64,000 nt of DNA, taken from assembly GCA_045599305.1 (NCBI GenBank), contig JAZRVU010000103.1, positions 173-64,172 on the forward strand, written 5' to 3'. This stretch comes from Acutalibacteraceae bacterium. Its GTDB lineage: Bacteria; Bacillota; Clostridia; Oscillospirales; Acutalibacteraceae. Below the pieces are notes generated by a model that was not told the origin of the DNA, did no database searches, and saw nothing but the letters and a program-made list of their open reading frames with translations. A program made the position numbers and the translations under genes. Position 1 is the stretch's first letter. Every line of letters begins with the position of its first letter. Below are positions 7,873 through 63,845 of the stretch, piece by piece.

Positions 7873-8925
7873 TCATCGGTCGCCCATGAACAAAAGCCGC
7901 ACGATCTTCACACGGCGCATAAACGCCACTGAGATCAGCGAAAGTACCCAGATGAGCGGCGGAGCAAACAGGAACGACACGATCAGCGGTATGGATCGCA
8001 TCACTGGGACAAGCAGCAGATAAAACAGTTCAAACACGCCGTACATCCCCATCGAAAACTGTGCCATCGGCGGCAGCCATGGCGAAAACACCGTGGAACG
8101 GTCGAAATCGCGACAGACCATGAACAAAAAGATGCTCATCAGTATGATATTGGGCATATAGGCCTGGTAAAACACCACATTTGCTTCGCCGGCACTGTGG
8201 GTCATCAGTGCGGCACCGATCGCGGTGGCGATCACGCTGATACCGTAGCCGATCAGCATCAAGCGGCGGGACGGCCGCCATTCCGTGGTGAACAGCAGCC
8301 ACCCCAGCAACAGGTATCCGAGATAGCCGCCCAACGGATTGGCACTGCCGTAGGCGGGAAGCGCCAGATTCGGGAAAAGGCCCGAAAGGATCGGAAAAAA
8401 GGAATTGTAACCGATCCACAGGATCGTGGCATAAAGGATGAGCCCGCGCGGCGCATGCTGCACCAGCAGCCGCAAGAACGGCAAAAGCAGATATACCGCG
8501 ATCAGCAGATAGAACAGCCACAGATGCGGTGCGGCCGGCGTGTTCAGCAGCGACCGAAGCATATCCGCCGGCATGATCTGTTCGCCCATCGGCCCCTGCC
8601 ACAAAAAGCGGAACACCATATAGATCAGCGACCAGACAGCCAGCGGGATGAGCAGCATGAGCACCCGGTCACGCAGCACTTCCTTTAACGAAACAGAGCT
8701 TTCCTTTTCCAAAAGCAGTGCTCCGAGTCCCATCAGCAAAAGCGGCACGGCAAACTGCGTGGCGGCGCCGAACAGATTTGCCACATGCCACGAAAATGTG
8801 AGTACATGTCCGTCTGCTGCGCCCTGCTGGATCAGCAGGCCGCACACGGCGGAATAGACTACCGCCGCCATTCCGATCACACGGATGCGATCGAAACAGG
8901 CGACACGGGGTTTCTTCTGTTCCAT
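7873..8925 (-). CDS. Acyltransferase family 3 (OafA/YrhL-like) integral membrane protein
   Basis: N-terminal FDRIRVIGMAAVV motif typical of acyltransferase_3, and ~10 hydrophobic segments. Start at ATG 8925 with GGAAGGAG SD. Confidence 0.8.
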   Translation of the reverse strand: MEQKKPRVACFDRIRVIGMAAVVYSAVCGLLIQQGAADGHVLTFSWHVANLFGAATQFAVPLLLMGLGALLLEKESSVSLKEVLRDRVLMLLIPLAVWSLIYMVFRFLWQGPMGEQIMPADMLRSLLNTPAAPHLWLFYLLIAVYLLLPFLRLLVQHAPRGLILYATILWIGYNSFFPILSGLFPNLALPAYGSANPLGGYLGYLLLGWLLFTTEWRPSRRLMLIGYGISVIATAIGAALMTHSAGEANVVFYQAYMPNIILMSIFLFMVCRDFDRSTVFSPWLPPMAQFSMGMYGVFELFYLLLVPVMRSIPLIVSFLFAPPLIWVLSLISVAFMRRVKIVRLLFMGDR

Positions 8926-9153
8926 GAAATATCTCCTTCCGCAGAATATACCATTAAAAGTATAAAAAAATTCAGTTGCAAATACAATAGTCAAAATCGC
9001 CCAAGTTTCGGTGAGCGCGCATGTGCTTTTTGGCCAAATGTCTCTAATTTTTAAAAAAGTCGGCTTATGCCCTTGTAATCCTGCCGGAAGCGTGATATCC
9101 TGTTATGTGGACAGAACCGTCCCATGTGGGACAGTATTTGAGGAGGGAATCGG

Positions 9154-9795
9154 GTGTTTTTGCGTGACTTGTTTCTCTTCAATGGCCTGACACCGGAGGA
9201 GATCGCCGGCCTTATGGCCGATGCACCGCCGCGTGAATCTTTCGAAAAGGGCGCCGTGATCTACACGACCGACCGCTTTCGCCCCGCCATGGGCATCGTG
9301 CTGAAGGGCAGAGTGGAGGTGGTGCGCGGGCACGCGATCCTAAACCGTCTGGGCCCCGGCGAGGCGTTCGGCGCCGCCGCACTCTATGGCGAGGAGACGG
9401 AATATGTCAGCGAGGTGCGCGCCGCGACCGCGTGTGAGGTGCAGTTCCTGCCACAGGGGCTGCTCGACAGATGGATGCAGGCCGATCGCCGGATCACGGA
9501 AAACTACATCCGCTTTTTGTCGGATCGCATCCGCTTTTTAAACCGGCGCATCACCGCCTTTACCTGCGGCGATGCCGAGCGGCGGCTGCTTTTATGGCTG
9601 CGGCAGCACGCGGATGCAAGCGGTACCCTCGCACCGCCCCGCCGCATGACGGAACTGGCCCGGCAGTTGGATATCGGCCGCTCGAGCCTTTACCGCGCGC
9701 TGGACACGCTGGAACAGTCGGGGTTGATCCGGCGGGAGACAGACACATGGCAATTGACCGAAACGGAAAGGATGGGTAATGATGAAGCATATTAA
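9154..9795 (+). CDS. Crp/Fnr family transcriptional regulator
   Basis: N-terminal cNMP-binding-like beta-roll (LFLFNGLTPEEIAGL...GEAFGAAALY) and C-terminal HTH (MTELARQLDIGRSSLYRALDTLEQSGLI). GTG start preceded by GAGGAGGG. Confidence 0.85.
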   Translation: MFLRDLFLFNGLTPEEIAGLMADAPPRESFEKGAVIYTTDRFRPAMGIVLKGRVEVVRGHAILNRLGPGEAFGAAALYGEETEYVSEVRAATACEVQFLPQGLLDRWMQADRRITENYIRFLSDRIRFLNRRITAFTCGDAERRLLLWLRQHADASGTLAPPRRMTELARQLDIGRSSLYRALDTLEQSGLIRRETDTWQLTETERMGNDEAY

Positions 9796-34994: not shown

Positions 34995-36418
34995 TTTTCA
35001 TTTCCTCCAAAATAAATCGTCCCGATATCGCCGCTGACGGCATCACCGGAAATCAGACAAACTGTGTATTCTCCCGCCGGCAGGTCGGCGCTGTTCAGCC
35101 ACAGCGAGAAGCCCGCGCCGGACACATCGCCGAGCAGATCCCGTTCCCAAATGGGAAAAGCCTCGAAGACCGCACTGCCGCCCTCGCCGGTCAACTGCAC
35201 GAACAGGCGGCCGTCCGCCCCCGTGAACGACTCGTCCACCGTGCCGTACAGGCGGATGGCGTACCCCTCGTCACGCATATACACCGCCGCCTCGCAGGCG
35301 ACCGTGCGGGCGGGGGCGATTCCCTCCCGCCGCGGCGCCATCATGTAGGGGGCGGTGGCGATGAGATCGCGCAGGTTGCGCTCGGCGATCTCATAGATCA
35401 TGTCGCTGCCCGCGCCCACCGCCGCCATTTCCGGGCGGGTGGTGCGCACGAAGGTCGCGGTGTCGTAGGCGTCGATGAGGAAGGGCAGCAGCGCCCGCCC
35501 GAAGGAATCACGCACCATATAGAGGGACGACCCGTCGGTCGGGGTCAGCTTCGCGGTCTTGATGCGGTGGTCGTTTTCCTCGCGGTCGCTCATGAACACC
35601 GCAAGCTGTGCCGCGGTATCGGTCACGCCGGCGGGATAGGTGAAGCGAAACGGGGCGTGGACGATGTCCAGCACATATTGCTTATCATACACGGCCGCGG
35701 CCGGATAGAGCAGTTTATCGAGGTCGCCCTGCCAGGAATACTCTGCCGTATAGGCGGCGCCGTCGTGCGGGTCGTGTGCCTTGCCGAGTGCGTCCATCAT
35801 GGCGTTGCAGCCCAACAGTGCGCCGAGATTGTTCCAATGGGTGTCGCGCTTGTGATAGGTGGTGAGGGCGGTGTTGGCCAGCACGGGCAGCAGATCGGCA
35901 CACCGCACCCCCTGCGCCTCGGCCGCCGCCAGCAGACGGGAGAGGTCGCTTTCGGCCGTCCGGCGGTAGCGGGCGGGCATATGGTCCCCGTAGACGGAAT
36001 TCTTATTGGGCACCGGTGCAAAGAGGAAGCGGCCGCCTGCGGCCTCCACGTGCTCCTGCAAAAGCGACAGGGTCACGGCGGCGGCCTGCACCTCGTGCGC
36101 CGTCATCGGGTCCTGCCCGATATAGTCCGGCACGGTGTCCTCATAGAACACCCACCCGTCCCGACCGGTGACGACATTCGCCGCCGGTGAGGCGAGCACA
36201 CGGCTTTTCACGAAGTCCGCGCCGGTGATCAGCTGCGAGCGAAACGGCAGCGCCTCACCGAACCATGTGTCAAATTCCTCAAAAAAAGCGGTGTTCACGC
36301 CGTCCTCTGTGATCGGCGACGGCGGCGCAGACGCACCGAAAAAGGGGAAAGCGAGCAAAAACACGCCGCACACGCCGAAAAAGAGCACGCAGAACAATAT
36401 CTTTGCCGGTTTACTCAC
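34991..36418 (-). CDS. DHHW / AlgX-AlgJ-like SGNH-fold protein (extracytoplasmic partner of the MBOAT acyltransferase)
   Basis: N-terminal TM anchor; the KRDTHWNNLGA motif corresponds to the D-x-H-W signature; translationally coupled between the MBOAT and lipoprotein genes. Confidence 0.75.
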   Translation of the reverse strand: MSKPAKILFCVLFFGVCGVFLLAFPFFGASAPPSPITEDGVNTAFFEEFDTWFGEALPFRSQLITGADFVKSRVLASPAANVVTGRDGWVFYEDTVPDYIGQDPMTAHEVQAAAVTLSLLQEHVEAAGGRFLFAPVPNKNSVYGDHMPARYRRTAESDLSRLLAAAEAQGVRCADLLPVLANTALTTYHKRDTHWNNLGALLGCNAMMDALGKAHDPHDGAAYTAEYSWQGDLDKLLYPAAAVYDKQYVLDIVHAPFRFTYPAGVTDTAAQLAVFMSDREENDHRIKTAKLTPTDGSSLYMVRDSFGRALLPFLIDAYDTATFVRTTRPEMAAVGAGSDMIYEIAERNLRDLIATAPYMMAPRREGIAPARTVACEAAVYMRDEGYAIRLYGTVDESFTGADGRLFVQLTGEGGSAVFEAFPIWERDLLGDVSGAGFSLWLNSADLPAGEYTVCLISGDAVSGDIGTIYFGGNEK

Positions 36419-58445: not shown

Positions 58446-58694
58446 AAACGTTGATGGGGACGGGAATCGCCGTCGGTCCGGCCAAAGAGAGTGCTGTCAT
58501 CGGCTGAAAGCAGCGCAGGGATCAGGACACGATCACCCCTACCACCCCGGAGCTCGCACCAAAACGGCACCGCCCTCATGGTGTGACGGCTGACCTCGTT
58601 ACCGGTCGCTTGAGGGCGGTACTGCCGCCGAATCAAGGGTGGAACCACGTGGAATTTTGCCGCGTCCCTTACGGGATGCGGCTTTTTTATTTTC
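58446..58694 (+). promoter_or_regulatory. T-box riboswitch leader (threonine-specific by context)
   Basis: AGAGAG stem-I motif (~58487). Conserved T-box sequence AATCAAGGGTGGAACCACGTGG (58631-58652). Terminator GCCGCGTCCC-ttac-GGGATGCGGC + TTTTTTATTTT (58659-58694). Candidate specifier ACC-A at 58541-58544. Confidence 0.85.
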
Positions 58695-58710
58695 AAAAGG
58701 AGTGACTATC

Positions 58711-60648
58711 ATGCTGAACATCACCTTAAAAGGCGGCGACGTGAAAGCGGTGGCGGAGAACACCACCATCGACGCGCTCTGCCGCGAAATTTCCATGGGA
58801 CTGTACCGCAACGCCTGCGCCGCGCGGCTGAACGGCAAGGTCGTTGACCTGCGCACCGCGCTGACCGCCGACGGCGAACTGGAGATCCTCACCTTCACCG
58901 ATCCCGACGGCGCATGGGCCTACCGCCACACCGCTTCGCATATTCTGGCACAGGCGGTGCGTCATCTCTTCCCCGAGGTGAAGTTGGCCATCGGCCCGGC
59001 GGTGGACAACGGTTTCTATTACGACTTTGACCGCGAGACCCCCTTCACCCCCGAAGACCTCACCAAGATCGAGGACGAGATGCGTGCCATCGCCAAGCAG
59101 GCGCTGCCCATCGAAGCGTTTGAACTTTCGGTGGACGAGGCGCGCGCGCTGATGAAGGACGAGCCCTACAAACTGGAACTGATCGAGGAGCACGCCGGCA
59201 AGGGCGAGACGATCAAATTCTACCGTCAGGGCGATTTCACCGATCTGTGCGCCGGCCCGCACCTGCCGGATACCGGCTATGTCAAGGCGGTGAAACTCAC
59301 CTCCTGCACCGGTGCCTACTGGCGCGGCAACGAAAAGAACAAAATGCTGCAGCGCATCTACGGCACCGCTTTCCCGAAGAAGAGCGAGCTGGAGGAATAC
59401 CTGCTGCAGGTGGAAGAGGCCAAAAAGCGTGACCACAACAAGCTCGGCCGTGAACTGGAACTGTTCACCACCTCGGACGTGATCGGGCAGGGTCTGCCCA
59501 TCATGCTGCCCAAGGGCGCCCGCATCATCCAGCTGCTGCAGCGCTTTGTGGAGGATGAGGAACAGCGCCGCGGCTGGCAGCTCACCAAGACCCCCTTCAT
59601 GGCCAAGAGTGACCTTTACAAGATCTCCGGCCACTGGGATCATTATCTTGACGGGATGTTCGTGCTGGGTGACCCGGAAAAGGACGACGAGGTCTTTGCG
59701 CTGCGTCCCATGACCTGCCCGTTCCAGTATCAGGCGTATCTCAACCGCGCCCGTTCCTACCGCGACCTGCCGCTGCGCTATAACGAGACCTCCACTCTCT
59801 TCCGCAACGAGGCGAGCGGCGAGATGCACGGCCTCATCCGCGTGCGTCAATTCACCATTTCGGAAGGCCACCTGATGTGCCTGCCCGAACAGTTGGAGGA
59901 GGAGTTCAAGGGCTGTCTGGAACTCGCCATCTTCATGCTCAAGACGCTCGGCCTTTACGAAGACGTGTCCTACCGCTTCTCGCAGTGGGATCCGAATGAC
60001 CGTGCCAAATATATCGGCACCGATGAGCAGTGGGACGAGGCGCAGGGCATGATGAAGCGCATCCTCGACCATCTGGAGATCCCCTACAAGATCGGTATCG
60101 GCGAGGCCGCTTTCTACGGCCCGAAGCTGGACATCCAGATCAAGAACGTCCACGGCAAGGAAGACACCCTTATCACCATCCAGATCGACCAGATGCTGGC
60201 GGAAAAGTTCGGCATGGAATACACCGACCGCGACGGCAGCAAGAAGAACCCCTATATCATCCACCGCACCTCCATCGGCTGCTATGAGCGCACGCTGGCG
60301 CTGCTGATCGAAAAATACGCCGGTGCGTTCCCGATGTGGCTGGCGCCCGAGCAGGTGCGTGTCATGCCCATCACCGACAAGCAGGCCGATTTCGCCAAGT
60401 CGGTGAGCGACCGTCTGCGTGCCGCCGGTCTGCGGGTGGAGACCGATCTGCGCAACGAAAAGATCGGCTACAAGATCCGCGAGGCACAGATGCAGAAGGT
60501 GCCGTATATGCTCGTGGTGGGCGACAAGGAAATGGAACAGAACGGCGTGGCCGTGCGCGCCCGCGGCGAGGGCGACCTGGGCACCATGCCGGTGGAGGAC
60601 TTCCTCGCACGGGCACTCGACGAGGTGGCCACCAAGGTCATCAAGTGA
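58711..60648 (+). CDS. thrS: Threonine--tRNA ligase
   Basis: TGS domain start MLNITLKGGDV...; HTASHILAQAV; class II motifs (...FRNEASGEMHGLIRVRQFT..., ...GEAAFYGPKLD...). Start moved to ATG 58711 (AAGGAG SD). Confidence 0.95.
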   Translation: MLNITLKGGDVKAVAENTTIDALCREISMGLYRNACAARLNGKVVDLRTALTADGELEILTFTDPDGAWAYRHTASHILAQAVRHLFPEVKLAIGPAVDNGFYYDFDRETPFTPEDLTKIEDEMRAIAKQALPIEAFELSVDEARALMKDEPYKLELIEEHAGKGETIKFYRQGDFTDLCAGPHLPDTGYVKAVKLTSCTGAYWRGNEKNKMLQRIYGTAFPKKSELEEYLLQVEEAKKRDHNKLGRELELFTTSDVIGQGLPIMLPKGARIIQLLQRFVEDEEQRRGWQLTKTPFMAKSDLYKISGHWDHYLDGMFVLGDPEKDDEVFALRPMTCPFQYQAYLNRARSYRDLPLRYNETSTLFRNEASGEMHGLIRVRQFTISEGHLMCLPEQLEEEFKGCLELAIFMLKTLGLYEDVSYRFSQWDPNDRAKYIGTDEQWDEAQGMMKRILDHLEIPYKIGIGEAAFYGPKLDIQIKNVHGKEDTLITIQIDQMLAEKFGMEYTDRDGSKKNPYIIHRTSIGCYERTLALLIEKYAGAFPMWLAPEQVRVMPITDKQADFAKSVSDRLRAAGLRVETDLRNEKIGYKIREAQMQKVPYMLVVGDKEMEQNGVAVRARGEGDLGTMPVEDFLARALDEVATKVIK

Positions 60649-61578: not shown

Positions 61579-61630
61579 CAAAGCAAAACAGCACCGGGTC
61601 AGACGCCGAGTGTTCCAAAGGACACCCGGC

Positions 61631-61790
61631 GAACGATGTGTTCCACTGCGTGGAACGTGATGTGCCTTACGGCGTGATGTTCGTCTGTGACGAGTGATGT
61701 GCGCCTCGACGGCGCGTGAGTGGAACACGTCACATCACTTTGCGGCACAACCGCAAAACATCACTATGGCGAAGCCATAACATCACTAAA
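61631..61790. repeat. Mirror-symmetric array of seven GTGATGT/ACATCAC heptamers, each adjacent to a different short perfect hairpin
   Basis: Top strand: (C)GATGTG 61635, GTGATGT 61657, 61674, 61694. Bottom strand (as ACATCAC): 61732, 61758, 61780. Hairpins: TTCCAC/GTGGAA, GCC/GGC, CGTC/GACG, GCGCC/GGCGC (centre, 61701-61715), CGTG/CACG, TTGCGG/CCGCAA, TATGGC/GCCATA. Confidence 0.7.
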
Positions 61791-61804
61791 CACTTTCAAA
61801 AAGC

Positions 61805-61847
61805 AAAAAACAGACTGATATTTTGATTTATCAGTCTGTTTTTGTTT
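61805..61847. terminator. Bidirectional terminator shared by the thrS operon and aconitase
   Basis: AAAAAACAGACTGATA-ttttgatt-TATCAGTCTGTTTTTGTTT. Confidence 0.8.
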
Positions 61848-61910
61848 ATAAGTGTGCACTTACTCACCACATAGGTGGCGTTTGTGCTTTAAACGGCTTT
61901 TTATGTCCGC

Positions 61911-63845
61911 TTATTTATTCTGTTCGCGTGTGTAGTCCAGCAGGCCGCCCGCCAGCAGCATGGCGATCTGCCGCTCGGAGAAGGAGGCGTTGAGCGGGTA
62001 TTCCTCGCCGGTGGTCTCATTTTTCAGCGTCACGGCCTCGCCCGCGGCGATACGGCGGCGCACATCCGGCAGACAGAGGGTGTCGCCCAGCGAAATGCGG
62101 TCATAGTCCGCTTCGTTTTGGAATGTGAGCGGGAGGATGCCGGCATTGATGAGGTTGGCCACGTGGATGCGGGCAAACGACTTCACGACGACCGCCTTGA
62201 TCCCCAGATAGAGCGGCGCGAGCGCGGCATGCTCACGCGAGCTGCCCTGCCCGTAATTGGCGCCGCCCACAATGATGCCGGCACCGGCCGCCTTGCAGCG
62301 GGCGGGGAACTCCGGATCGCAGCGCACGAAGCAATGCTCCGAAATGGCGGGGATGTTGGAGCGCAGCGGCAGGATCTTGGCACCGGCGGGCATGATGTGA
62401 TCGGTGGTGATGTTGTCCCCCACCTTCAAAAGCACGTCCGCACGGATGGTGTCGGCCAGCGGCGCGGTGGCGGGGAACGGCTTGATGTTCGGGCCGCGCA
62501 GGATCTCCACCTTGTCCATATCCTCCACCGGTGCGGGCGGGAGGATCATGTTATCGTTGATGAGGAAATGTGCCGGCAGGGACACCGCAGGGGCGTTACC
62601 CATGGTGCGCGGATCGGTGAAGACACCGGTCAACGCGGACACCGCCGCCGTTTCGGGGCTGACAAGGTAGACCTGCCCGTCCGCCGTACCGGAGCGGCCC
62701 TCGAAATTGCGGTTGAAGGTGCGCAGCGACACACCCGCCGAATTGGGCGACTGACCCATGCCGATGCAGGGGCCGCAGGCGCATTCCAGCACACGGGCGC
62801 CCGCGGCGATGATATCCGCCAGCGCACCGCATTCGGCCAGCATATTATACACCTGTTTGGAGCCGGGCGCGATGGCGAGGCTCACATCCGGATGCACGGT
62901 TTTGCCCTTGAGGATGGCGGCGACCTTCAGCATATCCGAAAGGGACGAGTTGGTGCAGGAGCCGATGCAGCACTGATCCACCTTTTTGCCCGCGAGCGAC
63001 GCGACCGGCTTCACATTGTCGGGCGAATGGGGGCAGGCGGCCAGCGGCTCCAGCGAGGACAGGTCGATGGTGACCACCTCGTCATACACAGCGTCCGCAT
63101 CCGCCGAAAGGGCGACCCAGTCGGCCTCGCGCCCCTGTGCCGCCATGAACGCACGGGTGACCTCGTCGGAGGGGAACACCGAGGTGGAAGCGCCCAACTC
63201 GGCACCCATATTGGTGATGGTGGCACGCTCCGGCACCGAGAGGGTCTTGACCCCTTCGCCGCCGTATTCGATGATCTTGCCCACGCCGCCCTTCACAGAC
63301 AGACGGCGCAGCACCTCCAGAATGATGTCCTTCGCGGCGACCCACGGACGCAGTGCGCCGGTGAGTTCCACCCGCACCATTTTGGGATAGGTGATGTAAT
63401 AGGTGCCGCCGCCCATGGCCACGGCCACGTCCAGACCGCCCGCGCCGAACGCCAGCATACCGATGCCGCCGCCGGTGGGGGTGTGGCTGTCGGAGCCGAT
63501 CAGCGTTTTGCCGGGGATACCGAACCGCTCCAGATGCACCTGATGGCAGATGCCGTTGCCGGGACGGGAGAAGAAAAGCCCGTGCTTTTTGCACACCGAC
63601 TGGATGTAGCGGTGGTCGTCCGCGTTTTCGAAGCCGGTCTGCAGGGTGTTATGGTCGATATAGGCCACCGAAAGCTCCGTTCTGACACGGGGCACCCCCA
63701 TCGCCTCAAACTCCAGATACGCCATCGTGCCGGTGGCGTCCTGTGTCAGCGTCTGGTCGATGCGCAGCCCGATCTCGCTGCCGGCAGTCATTTCGCCGCA
63801 GACAAGGTGCGACGCGATCAGTTTTTGTGCAATGGTGTAGCCCAT
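61911..63845 (-). CDS. Aconitate hydratase (644-aa clostridial-type aconitase)
   Basis: MGYTIAQKLIASHL...IDQTLTQDATG...; Fe-S ligand contexts GSDSHT, IGSCTN, CGPCIG; swivel domain ...GANYGQGSSREHAA. Confidence 0.9.
   Translation of the reverse strand: MGYTIAQKLIASHLVCGEMTAGSEIGLRIDQTLTQDATGTMAYLEFEAMGVPRVRTELSVAYIDHNTLQTGFENADDHRYIQSVCKKHGLFFSRPGNGICHQVHLERFGIPGKTLIGSDSHTPTGGGIGMLAFGAGGLDVAVAMGGGTYYITYPKMVRVELTGALRPWVAAKDIILEVLRRLSVKGGVGKIIEYGGEGVKTLSVPERATITNMGAELGASTSVFPSDEVTRAFMAAQGREADWVALSADADAVYDEVVTIDLSSLEPLAACPHSPDNVKPVASLAGKKVDQCCIGSCTNSSLSDMLKVAAILKGKTVHPDVSLAIAPGSKQVYNMLAECGALADIIAAGARVLECACGPCIGMGQSPNSAGVSLRTFNRNFEGRSGTADGQVYLVSPETAAVSALTGVFTDPRTMGNAPAVSLPAHFLINDNMILPPAPVEDMDKVEILRGPNIKPFPATAPLADTIRADVLLKVGDNITTDHIMPAGAKILPLRSNIPAISEHCFVRCDPEFPARCKAAGAGIIVGGANYGQGSSREHAALAPLYLGIKAVVVKSFARIHVANLINAGILPLTFQNEADYDRISLGDTLCLPDVRRRIAAGEAVTLKNETTGEEYPLNASFSERQIAMLLAGGLLDYTREQNK

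Follow-up and report, generated by a model that had tools for sequence, protein, structure and literature searches.

A mirrored heptamer–hairpin array related to Rfam Gut-1 in an Acutalibacteraceae genome and the association of its family with PF05635 genes

Introduction

The Rfam family Gut-1 (RF01706) consists of runs of short GC hairpins linked by an R-U-G-A-W-R-U heptamer; its consensus is hairpins separated by GUGAAAU, and the words of its seed already vary (GUGAAAU, GUGAUAU). It was listed as a candidate small RNA (sRNA) and rated 'Y' for RNA, that is, likely RNA, and its occurrence in human-gut environmental sequence is the only published statement about it (Weinberg et al. 2010, Genome Biol 11:R31, PMC2864571). 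Here we describe a related element in a 64,000-nucleotide stretch of an Acutalibacteraceae bacterium genome (hereafter the window; positions 173–64,172 of contig JAZRVU010000103.1, assembly GCA_045599305.1). The element, at window positions 61583–61787, is a dyad array in which the word GTGATGT and its reverse complement, ACATCAC, recur in two mirrored half-arrays, each word beside a mini-hairpin.

The family to which this array belongs is associated with genes for four-helix-bundle proteins of PF05635/TIGR02436 (23S rRNA intervening-sequence, Avd-like). These proteins are widespread; to our knowledge, they have no known function outside diversity-generating retroelements (DGRs). Proteins of the Avd family, which PF05635 resembles, act with RNA in DGRs (PMC10053308), and at the targets of these Avd-containing systems, GC hairpins whose loops are of the G..A type extrude when the DNA is supercoiled (Guo et al. 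2011, PMC3240598). Proteins of PF05635 (S23p) are also encoded by 23S rRNA intervening sequences, for example in Coxiella, described as selfish (PMC4990558). Our search of the literature on PF05635, TIGR02436 and Gut-1 found no published function or mutual link.

Results and Discussion

A dyad array related to Gut-1

Direct reading of the sequence places GTGATGT at 61657–61663, 61674–61680 and 61694–61700 and ACATCAC at 61732–61738, 61758–61764 and 61780–61786, as an initial annotation made from the sequence alone had reported. Each heptamer abuts a perfect hairpin with a 3–7 bp stem of unit-specific sequence. Exact GTGATGT occurs 21 times on the two strands of the window against 6.3 expected, the six exact heptamers inside 130 bp have a Poisson probability of about 6e-15, and the array folds with a z-score of −7.9 relative to shuffles on either strand. 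The mirror array is a real, non-fortuitous element. Our preferred reading, to which we give a probability of roughly one half, is that 61583–61787 is a gene-less orphan of a Gut-1-type dyad array whose parent stands beside a PF05635 gene, and that it is a DNA docking array for the cognate ring protein.

In a permissive Rfam scan, the left half (61655–61727) aligned to the Gut-1 model with 26.9 bits (E 0.0017), below the gathering cut-off of 50 bits, and the right half gave no match to the model on the minus strand; two further arrays of the same genome, on contigs C19 (76.8 bits) and C64 (63.1 bits), score above the cut-off. The window array shows the Gut-1 architecture of at least three short hairpins split by an RUGAWRU heptamer, with GUGAUGU as its word instead of GUGAAAU or GUGAUAU. 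Both come from gut Clostridia, and canonical Gut-1 members lie in the same genome. By sequence and architecture, the window array belongs, in the broad sense, to a Gut-1-related repeat family found in gut and rumen Clostridia. The initial annotation had overlooked both this catalogued family and the status of the window copy as a gene-less offshoot.

A scan of 61 relatives with RF01706 returned matches in 33 genomes, 20 above the cut-off, with at most 35 per genome. The matches form convergent plus/minus pairs about 20 nt apart, many of them at contig ends; the general form is thus a dyad, of which the Rfam model represents one half. A mirrored half (for example, GUGAUAU three times followed by AUAUCAC four times) and an upstream terminator are likewise present in the flanks of the original Gut-1 Stockholm alignment. 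By comparison, the Rfam model is a single half-array of 77 nt, without the dyad, the X/X′ repeat described below, the multicopy behavior or the PF05635 link. Words are lineage-specific (GTGAAAT, GTGATAT, GTGAAGT, GTGATGT, ATGAAAT and others), and the right half always carries the reverse complement. Half-arrays of a single orientation exist in some genomes, so the words need no complementary partner.

Association with PF05635 genes

Of the 61 genomes, 25 had both Gut-1 matches and PF05635 genes, 8 had only Gut-1, 3 had only PF05635 and 25 had neither (odds ratio 26, p 4e-7; p 5e-6 with one genome per genus). A mirrored word array lay directly upstream of 19 of the 30 PF05635 loci, and the PF05635-only genomes encoded a divergent protein clade without arrays. 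Two such genes occur in the genome studied here. On contig C108, a GTGATGT array leads into TTTACT-17-TATAAT, after which come a ribosome-binding site and an open reading frame (ORF) of PF05635/TIGR02436. On contig C2, a tRNA gene, a terminator and an ATGAAG array precede a second PF05635 gene, whose product matches PDB 2RLD, a five-chain entry (E 9e-32).

The window word, GTGATGT, is that of the resident C108 array, which, judged from its word and layout, is the GTGATGT parent copy of this genome. The window copy does not have the parent layout: it is flanked by a 305-aa ORF (ORF305) and an aconitase gene, and no promoter is predicted in the spacer. Because it lacks the adjoining PF05635 gene and promoter that C108 has, the window copy is an orphan, an ordinary family member present as a gene-less duplicate in a 3′ spacer. 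In other genomes the match between orphan and resident parent words was mixed, among Rfam-sampled loci biased to GUGAAAU/GUGAUAU.

A conserved operon partner downstream of PF05635 was considered and rejected: the neighboring genes vary and are mutually unrelated. In three genomes (loci L109, L106 and L112) the gene after PF05635 starts MKL..PFEMIK.G.KTIELRL.DEKR and has an ASCH-like look. A DGR was likewise rejected, as the genome has no reverse transcriptase (PF00078) match and the genes after PF05635 are mutually unrelated.

Co-variation of word and protein

From named rumen and gut Clostridia metagenome-assembled genomes (MAGs), 80 close homologs of the C108 protein (77–95% identical) were taken, 69 of them with enough upstream DNA. 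At least four TGATG/CATCA words stood upstream in 67 of these 69 loci (one per species). Arrays with A at word position 1 accompany proteins with a K/R-E/D-N N-terminus (22/22), and those with G at position 1 accompany a serine at the third position of this motif (45/45). Of 12 arrays with C at word position 7, 11 go with IIELVK. The C108 protein itself, with an SES N-terminus and IINLVK, is of the type that accompanies GTGATGT, the window word, across the 69 species. Proteins sharing a word are more alike than those that do not (65.8% versus 50.7% identity; permutation p<0.0002), and same-word proteins from separate bacterial families resemble each other more than paralogs in one genome do. 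At positions 1 and 7 of the word, changes go with specific protein residues; a small, ring-forming four-helix-bundle protein of the C108 type probably reads the seven-base word.

Organization of the window spacer

The array occupies most of a convergent spacer of 332 bp (61579–61910) between the thrS operon and the aconitase gene, whose extent agrees with the initial annotation. Its parts and neighbors are as follows.

61583–61787, plus strand: whole repeat unit (5′ GC hairpin, left half-array, center, right half-array), from BLASTN and the alignment of five copies
61604–61631, plus strand: 5′ GC-rich hairpin, CGCCGAGTGTTCC / GGACACCCGGCG, without a T-run; from the sequence, common to the C60 copy
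61633–61639, plus strand: degenerate first heptamer H0, ACGATGT; from sequence reading
61640–61656, plus strand: hairpin A, GTTCCAC tgc GTGGAAC; two compensatory pairs among five copies (helix 1)
61657–61700, plus strand: left half-array, with GTGATGT at 61657, GCC/GGC hairpin at 61664–61673, GTGATGT at 61674, TCGTC/GACGA hairpin at 61681–61693 and GTGATGT at 61694; invariant cores, compensatory stem changes
61701–61715, plus strand: hairpin D, GCGCC tcgac GGCGC, which ends the left half-array; helix 7, 100% paired with one compensatory pair
61716–61731, plus strand: dyad center, holding X′ GTGGAACACGTC at 61720–61731, which is complementary to X GATGTGTTCCAC (61635–61646) and repeats the 3′ arm of hairpin A
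61732–61786, plus strand: right half-array, with ACATCAC at 61732, TTTGCGG/CCGCAAA hairpin at 61739–61757, ACATCAC at 61758, TATGGC gaa GCCATA hairpin at 61765–61779 and ACATCAC at 61780; from sequence and covariation
61799–61894, either strand: bidirectional intrinsic terminator (stem 61805–61847) plus about 50 bp; from the terminator scan, duplicated with the array at C60
60661–61578, plus strand: upstream flanking gene, the 305-aa ORF after thrS (58639–60648), without a Pfam match; from the ORF list and Pfam search
61911–63845, minus strand: convergent flanking gene of the aconitase family (PF00330, E 6e-110)

Several details of the initial annotation change in this layout. The degenerate heptamer that it claimed at 61635 exists as ACGATGT but lies at 61633–61639; other family members have AACGAAAT, AACTAAGT or TCAATGATAT as the equivalent first word. 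Its statement that every heptamer stands beside a perfect hairpin holds for the stems listed above but not for CGTG/CACG, which other copies do not conserve: the stretch concerned, 61720–61731, duplicates the 3′ arm of hairpin A and is complementary to word X, which consists of H0 plus the 5′ arm of hairpin A. The half-arrays were said to face each other across the hairpin at 61701–61715, whereas the dyad center is at 61716–61731. The 5′ GC hairpin (61604–61631) belongs to the repeat unit and occupies the position that an intrinsic terminator has in tRNA-linked and gene-linked copies.

The stem at 61805–61847 is the only terminator-like site in the spacer that fits a real terminator, and no promoter is predicted anywhere in the spacer; the array therefore probably lies in the 3′ untranslated region (UTR) of the plus-strand transcript, as had been proposed. 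This position between convergent genes, upstream of a bidirectional terminator, and the very stable fold (z = −7.9) could suggest a compound terminator or mRNA-stabilizing 3′ structure private to this locus. We regard such a role as very unlikely: no array hairpin is followed by a plus-strand T-run, the terminator being a separate hairpin, the element is also found near promoters, in leaders and downstream of tRNA genes, and the invariant heptamers would have no role in a terminator. A CRISPR array was also rejected: the 7-nt repeats fall short of the 23 nt or more expected and are found in either orientation, and what separates them are palindromes 10–19 nt long. The earlier view that the array is neither terminator, REP (repetitive extragenic palindromic) element nor CRISPR array was thus borne out by tests of T-runs, palindromes and repeat type.

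Contig C36 carries two tandem paralogs of the 305-aa ORF (8319–9662; 67% DNA identity), and homologs occur in several genomes of the genus, where they are not syntenic with aconitase.

Copies and covariation within the genome

The source assembly (G000; 1.98 Mb in 122 contigs, with the window on contig C103) was searched with a 171-bp segment, and BLAST found four more copies, on contigs C60, C8, C79 and C108, at 79–88% identity. BLASTN of the window locus (L001) gave 87% identity to C60 over 207 bp and 81–85% to C8, C79 and C108, and pairwise identity in the alignment of the five GTGATGT copies was 75–87%. Word-based scans brought the genome total to 11 arrays in three word classes.

TGATG class: C108, C8, C60, C79, C103 (window) and a half-array at C26
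ATGAAG class: C2, C4 and C13
GTGAAAT class: C19 and C64

Homology with the C60 copy spans 61583–61894, including the 5′ GC hairpin and the bidirectional terminator (L001 1675–1770 aligns to L002 1743–1834, the C60 locus, at 78%), which makes almost all of the 332-bp spacer a single duplicated module. The genes flanking the five GTGATGT copies are mutually unrelated. Relative to the window copy, the C60 copy (L002 1662–1740) has two extra units, inserted after the last heptamer that both copies have and ahead of the terminator; one of them has the long hairpin TTGCCCCATATCGCTTGCgcaGCAAGCGATATGGGGCAA. Whole units are thus gained or lost by arrays.

Across the five copies, invariant columns make up 30/30 of the heptamer cores, 40/66 of the stems and 1/25 of the loops. 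Eight pairs have changed on both sides, every one of them in the local hairpins, and 95% of local-hairpin cells are paired against 25–52% in slid controls, which give 0–1 two-sided pairs. The covariation score of 0.18 was reached in 0 of 500 shuffles. Hairpins described earlier as different and private to the locus are in fact homologous between copies, and the right-half hairpin TATGGCgaaGCCATA is found again in other genomes, in arrays built on different heptamers. The long-range helix X:X′ (12 bp) is 98% paired in the five copies with two compensatory pairs, support equal to that of hairpin A; an alternative pairing at the left end is therefore conserved as well. The X/X′ design is also present in canonical Gut-1 arrays, for example AAATCCACCC ... 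GGGTGGATTT. From these comparisons, the heptamer words and the stem pairing are under selection in the copies of this genome. Further copies in the genome, family members in relatives and compensatory hairpin changes, all of which the initial annotation had proposed to look for, were found (11 arrays, Gut-1 hits in 33/61 relatives and 8 pairs among five copies, respectively).

Nested pairing of left with right heptamers, a four-way-junction ladder, is the minimum-free-energy fold, but it was rejected as a required structure, although it may occur as a conformation: no compensatory change supports it among the five copies, end positions vary uncompensated, and half-arrays make such pairing unnecessary.

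Dispersed, intergenic copies built of a hairpin beside a conserved short word, in both orientations, recall the REP and bacterial interspersed mosaic elements (BIMEs) of Enterobacteria, palindromes that likewise occur in many intergenic copies, commonly at the 3′ ends of genes and between convergent genes, clustered and in both orientations. An element of this kind, mobilized by a REP-associated tyrosine transposase (RAYT) or IS200-type Y1 transposase that reads hairpin and flanking word on single-stranded DNA, would also suit the folding evidence for single-stranded DNA presented below. In REP, however, it is the palindrome that is conserved, whereas in the arrays the palindrome is free and the linker constant, and the arrays are two mirrored blocks rather than alternating units. 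No RAYT is encoded in this genome: PF01797 (Y1_Tnp) is absent from it and from the array-rich genomes G039, G048, G001 and G006, and across the 61 genomes it occurs in 15 of 33 with Gut-1 and 10 of 28 without, which is no association. We rejected this candidate, and its involvement seems barely credible.

DNA or RNA

The 174 distinct hairpins have 1018 stem pairs, of which 982 are Watson–Crick and just 15 G·T or A·C. On the GTGAxxT strand, nearly all loops are C(TNC)G, which makes those of the opposite strand C(GNA)G or C(GNNA)G; such loops are of a stable DNA mini-hairpin type (review PMC13037366). UUCG RNA tetraloops were rejected, since the common CTTCG loops are C-G-closed TTC triloops and not cUUCGg. 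In gene-oriented arrays, the plus strand carries 0 G·T and 4 A·C pairs in the left half and 7 G·T and 0 A·C pairs in the right half; with both sets summed, 23 wobble pairs fall on the GNA-loop strand and 3 on the other. It follows that the minus strand folds in the left half and the plus strand in the right. Both favored strands run 5′ to 3′ away from the dyad center and read hairpin(GNA loop)-ACATCAC, so no single transcript has both halves favorably oriented. Parent arrays, moreover, lie between a terminator and a promoter, outside every predicted transcript. Base-pair statistics, loop types and parent placement thus appear to favor folded DNA over an sRNA. Of the three roles that the initial annotation had suggested, an iterated protein-binding site fits best, given the tie to the Avd-like gene, and a protein-titrating RNA is disfavored by the same three features. 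An independent sRNA gene was rejected: the window spacer has no predicted promoter, and only some members have a downstream terminator.

An alternative is a structured RNA, as Rfam files Gut-1. The element would then be transcribed, here in the 3′ UTR of the thrS–ORF305 transcript and elsewhere by read-through or as a leader, and its single-stranded heptamers would bind an Avd-like pentamer or another RNA-binding protein, much as Avd works with DGR RNA. The window array does sit between a stop codon and the only fitting terminator with no promoter predicted, and the half-arrays of genome G039, which end 5–20 nt before a ribosome-binding site, must therefore be in mRNA leaders. The parent arrays, in contrast, stand between a strong terminator and the gene's own promoter, where no predicted transcript covers them, and a terminator follows the array in some copies only. 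The left half fits the Gut-1 covariance model and the hairpins covary strongly, but G·U makes up about 1.5% of stem pairs, and the loops are GNA triloops rather than UNCG or mostly GNRA tetraloops. The wobble asymmetry of 23 to 3 indicates that one strand matters, which is compatible with RNA too; the wobble-tolerant strand nevertheless differs between the halves, so that no transcript favors both, and the dyad design is typical of DNA sites. The 'Y' rating of Gut-1 (PMC2864571) and the action of Avd-family proteins with RNA in DGRs (PMC10053308) speak for RNA; on balance, we consider the structured-RNA explanation rather unlikely.

Proposed role as a docking array

TRAP is a ring protein that reads 11 (G/U)AG RNA repeats separated by 2–3 nt spacers. 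The arrays may offer a functional analogy, a homo-oligomeric ring facing a nucleic acid with one short word per subunit at regular spacing; they differ in having hairpin spacers, 7-nt words, 4–5 words per half and possibly DNA as the molecule, and binding is putative. In the docking reading, the hairpins would fold out of the DNA helix, the words would then be presented as evenly spaced short linkers between them, and subunits of the cognate ring protein (an Avd-like pentamer) would read the words. The hairpins would be mere spacers, which would account for stem sequences that drift with pairing kept. In each half, the folded strand would be the one that reads hairpin(GNA loop)-ACATCAC, minus on the left and plus on the right. 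At the parent copy, the element would act as folded or cruciform DNA, either a promoter-proximal operator or a docking platform, and orphans such as the window copy would be additional docking sites rather than free-standing sRNAs. Protein binding, action at the DNA level and a regulatory effect are what we infer from these sequence patterns.

The DGR target hairpin offers a precedent. Both systems have free-sequence GC stems, G...A loops on one strand and a strand-specific function, the DGR hairpin extrudes in supercoiled DNA (PMC3240598), and both include an Avd-type pentameric four-helix-bundle protein, given that PF05635 resembles Avd (PMC10053308). A DGR target, however, is one hairpin of 7–10 bp with a GRNA tetraloop, whereas the arrays have many hairpins of 3–7 bp with GNA triloops and interleaved words; no reverse transcriptase is encoded in this genome and no template-repeat/variable-repeat pair was seen. 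Avd is not known to bind the DGR hairpin.

Several observations weigh against the docking reading. Eight genomes have a few Gut-1 matches each but no PF05635 gene; the C108 gene is truncated by the contig end at residue 77; the GTGAAAT arrays on C19 and C64 have no matching gene in the assembly; and sampled orphans of genome G030 differ in word from the sole PF05635-linked array there. Because gene and array are adjacent, common descent instead of recognition could underlie their co-variation. Transcription must reach some copies, the window copy as a 3′ UTR and the G039 half-arrays as leaders, and stems of 3–7 bp are short for cruciform extrusion. Avd works with RNA in DGRs (PMC10053308), and the Rfam authors rated Gut-1 as likely RNA (PMC2864571).

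A wider proposal, which we advance only tentatively, is that Gut-1-type arrays and stand-alone Avd-like pentamers may form an unrecognized two-part system of gut and rumen Clostridia. The ring protein would read a lineage-specific 7-nt code (with positions 1, 5, 6 and 7 tracking residues) on single-stranded DNA linkers between extruded mini-hairpins, the read strand running outward from the center; parents would control the protein's own promoter, and dozens of orphans would serve as additional docking sites on the chromosome. If true, this would be a structure-dependent, programmable protein–DNA recognition system rather than an sRNA. Gut-1, in Rfam since 2010 with little beyond 'found in human gut metagenomes', is now linked to PF05635/TIGR02436, and each orphan gains a candidate partner, a word–residue correspondence and a structural hypothesis (extruded DNA hairpins with words as linkers). 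What the Rfam model captures is half of the element and, possibly, the wrong molecule. In MAGs of Oscillospirales-type Clostridia, the arrays account for many contig breaks and for many 'ornate' intergenic palindromes, which matters for genome annotation.

Genomic context and spread of the arrays

Downstream of a tRNA or transfer-messenger RNA (tmRNA) gene, at a distance of 36–105 nt, lie 23 of 45 dyad arrays; in all such cases the tRNA or tmRNA gene points toward the array, with a terminator between them. In tRNA-linked and gene-linked arrays, a terminator with a T-run ends 2–3 nt before the first word, and in 12 of 18 PF05635-linked arrays a sigma-70-like promoter starts −1 to +8 nt past the last word. 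Parent arrays thus have the order terminator, array, promoter, gene, with the array filling the gap up to the −35 box and the terminator often belonging to a tRNA gene. A terminator downstream of the array is present in only some family members.

Another view is that a terminator–array–promoter–gene cassette spreads or duplicates as a selfish or neutral dispersed repeat, whether similar to a miniature inverted-repeat transposable element (MITE) or a decayed cassette, and loses its genes, the orphans being relics with at most incidental effects such as protection of mRNA 3′ ends. The distribution is indeed patchy, with many copies at contig ends and unrelated flanking genes; a tRNA gene stands just upstream of half of the dyad arrays, a position typical of inserted elements; nearly the whole window spacer is duplicated at C60; and the orphans on C8, C79 and C64 retain a relic promoter module without a gene. 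PF05635 ORFs in 23S rRNA intervening sequences, described as selfish (PMC4990558), present a similar picture of a small, structured insert in a stable-RNA neighborhood (rRNA there, downstream of tRNA genes here), although those sequences lie inside rRNA, are excised by RNase III and have no described heptamer–hairpin array. What argues against mere spread is that orphans diverged by 13–25% keep 30/30 core columns and compensated stems, which points to continuing selection, or gene conversion, and not to decay. No transposase, clear terminal inverted repeats or target-site duplication was found, and no empty site was recovered: ORF305–aconitase synteny is not kept within the genus, there is no close strain for comparison, and a metagenome scan gave only a relative at 30%. 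On balance, the selfish or neutral repeat seems improbable to us.

The relic modules read GGAAATTATATATAATTTCC followed by CTGCTTG(C/A)TA..CATGAGACAAA and are shared by two GTGATGT-type orphans and one of GTGAAAT type (loci L003 and L004 among them).

C8, 34900–34975: relic module
C79, 6140–6210: relic module
C64, 131–190: relic module

They align with the PF05635 gene of C108 at its promoter and 5′ UTR, and no gene is present at these three sites, so the module resembles a relic promoter after gene loss. A related word, GACAAAAMCACCTGCC, recurs at the opposite end of the C8 copy.

The terminator between tRNA gene and array has a conserved apical sequence, TTTGTCTACCAGACAAA, across genomes, bacterial families and tRNA species (L094 1243–1272, that is, G000 C2, and L096, L104, L105, L108, L019 and L097); the terminator may travel with the array–gene cassette rather than belong to the tRNA gene. 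On contig C4 (12180–12256), the promoter-like word ATTGTGCTATTTCGT(A/C)GTATAAT stands directly upstream of the array terminator hairpin with no tRNA between, and it is also found downstream of the C13 array (35192–35260) and of the L033 array. It could be a tRNA promoter that remained after deletion or a promoter that reads into the array.

Further words and a second repeat family

The word repertoire is wider than the Rfam model detects. An array in genome G038 (contig C6, locus L091), downstream of the stop codon of a PF05635 gene, uses a word outside RTGAxxT, with GCTAAAT four times followed by ATTTAGC three times, and GCGATAT, TGTAATC, GTTATGA and AGTTATA occur as further words. Arrays in genomes G039 and G008 are interleaved with, or have inserted beside them, another repeat family, whose words include GACTGAGGGAGGG ... 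CCCTCCCTCCGTC (L011 1700–1950, L015 1700–1850, L016 1600–1800 and L018 1600–1800); in L011, this second family stands between two half-arrays.

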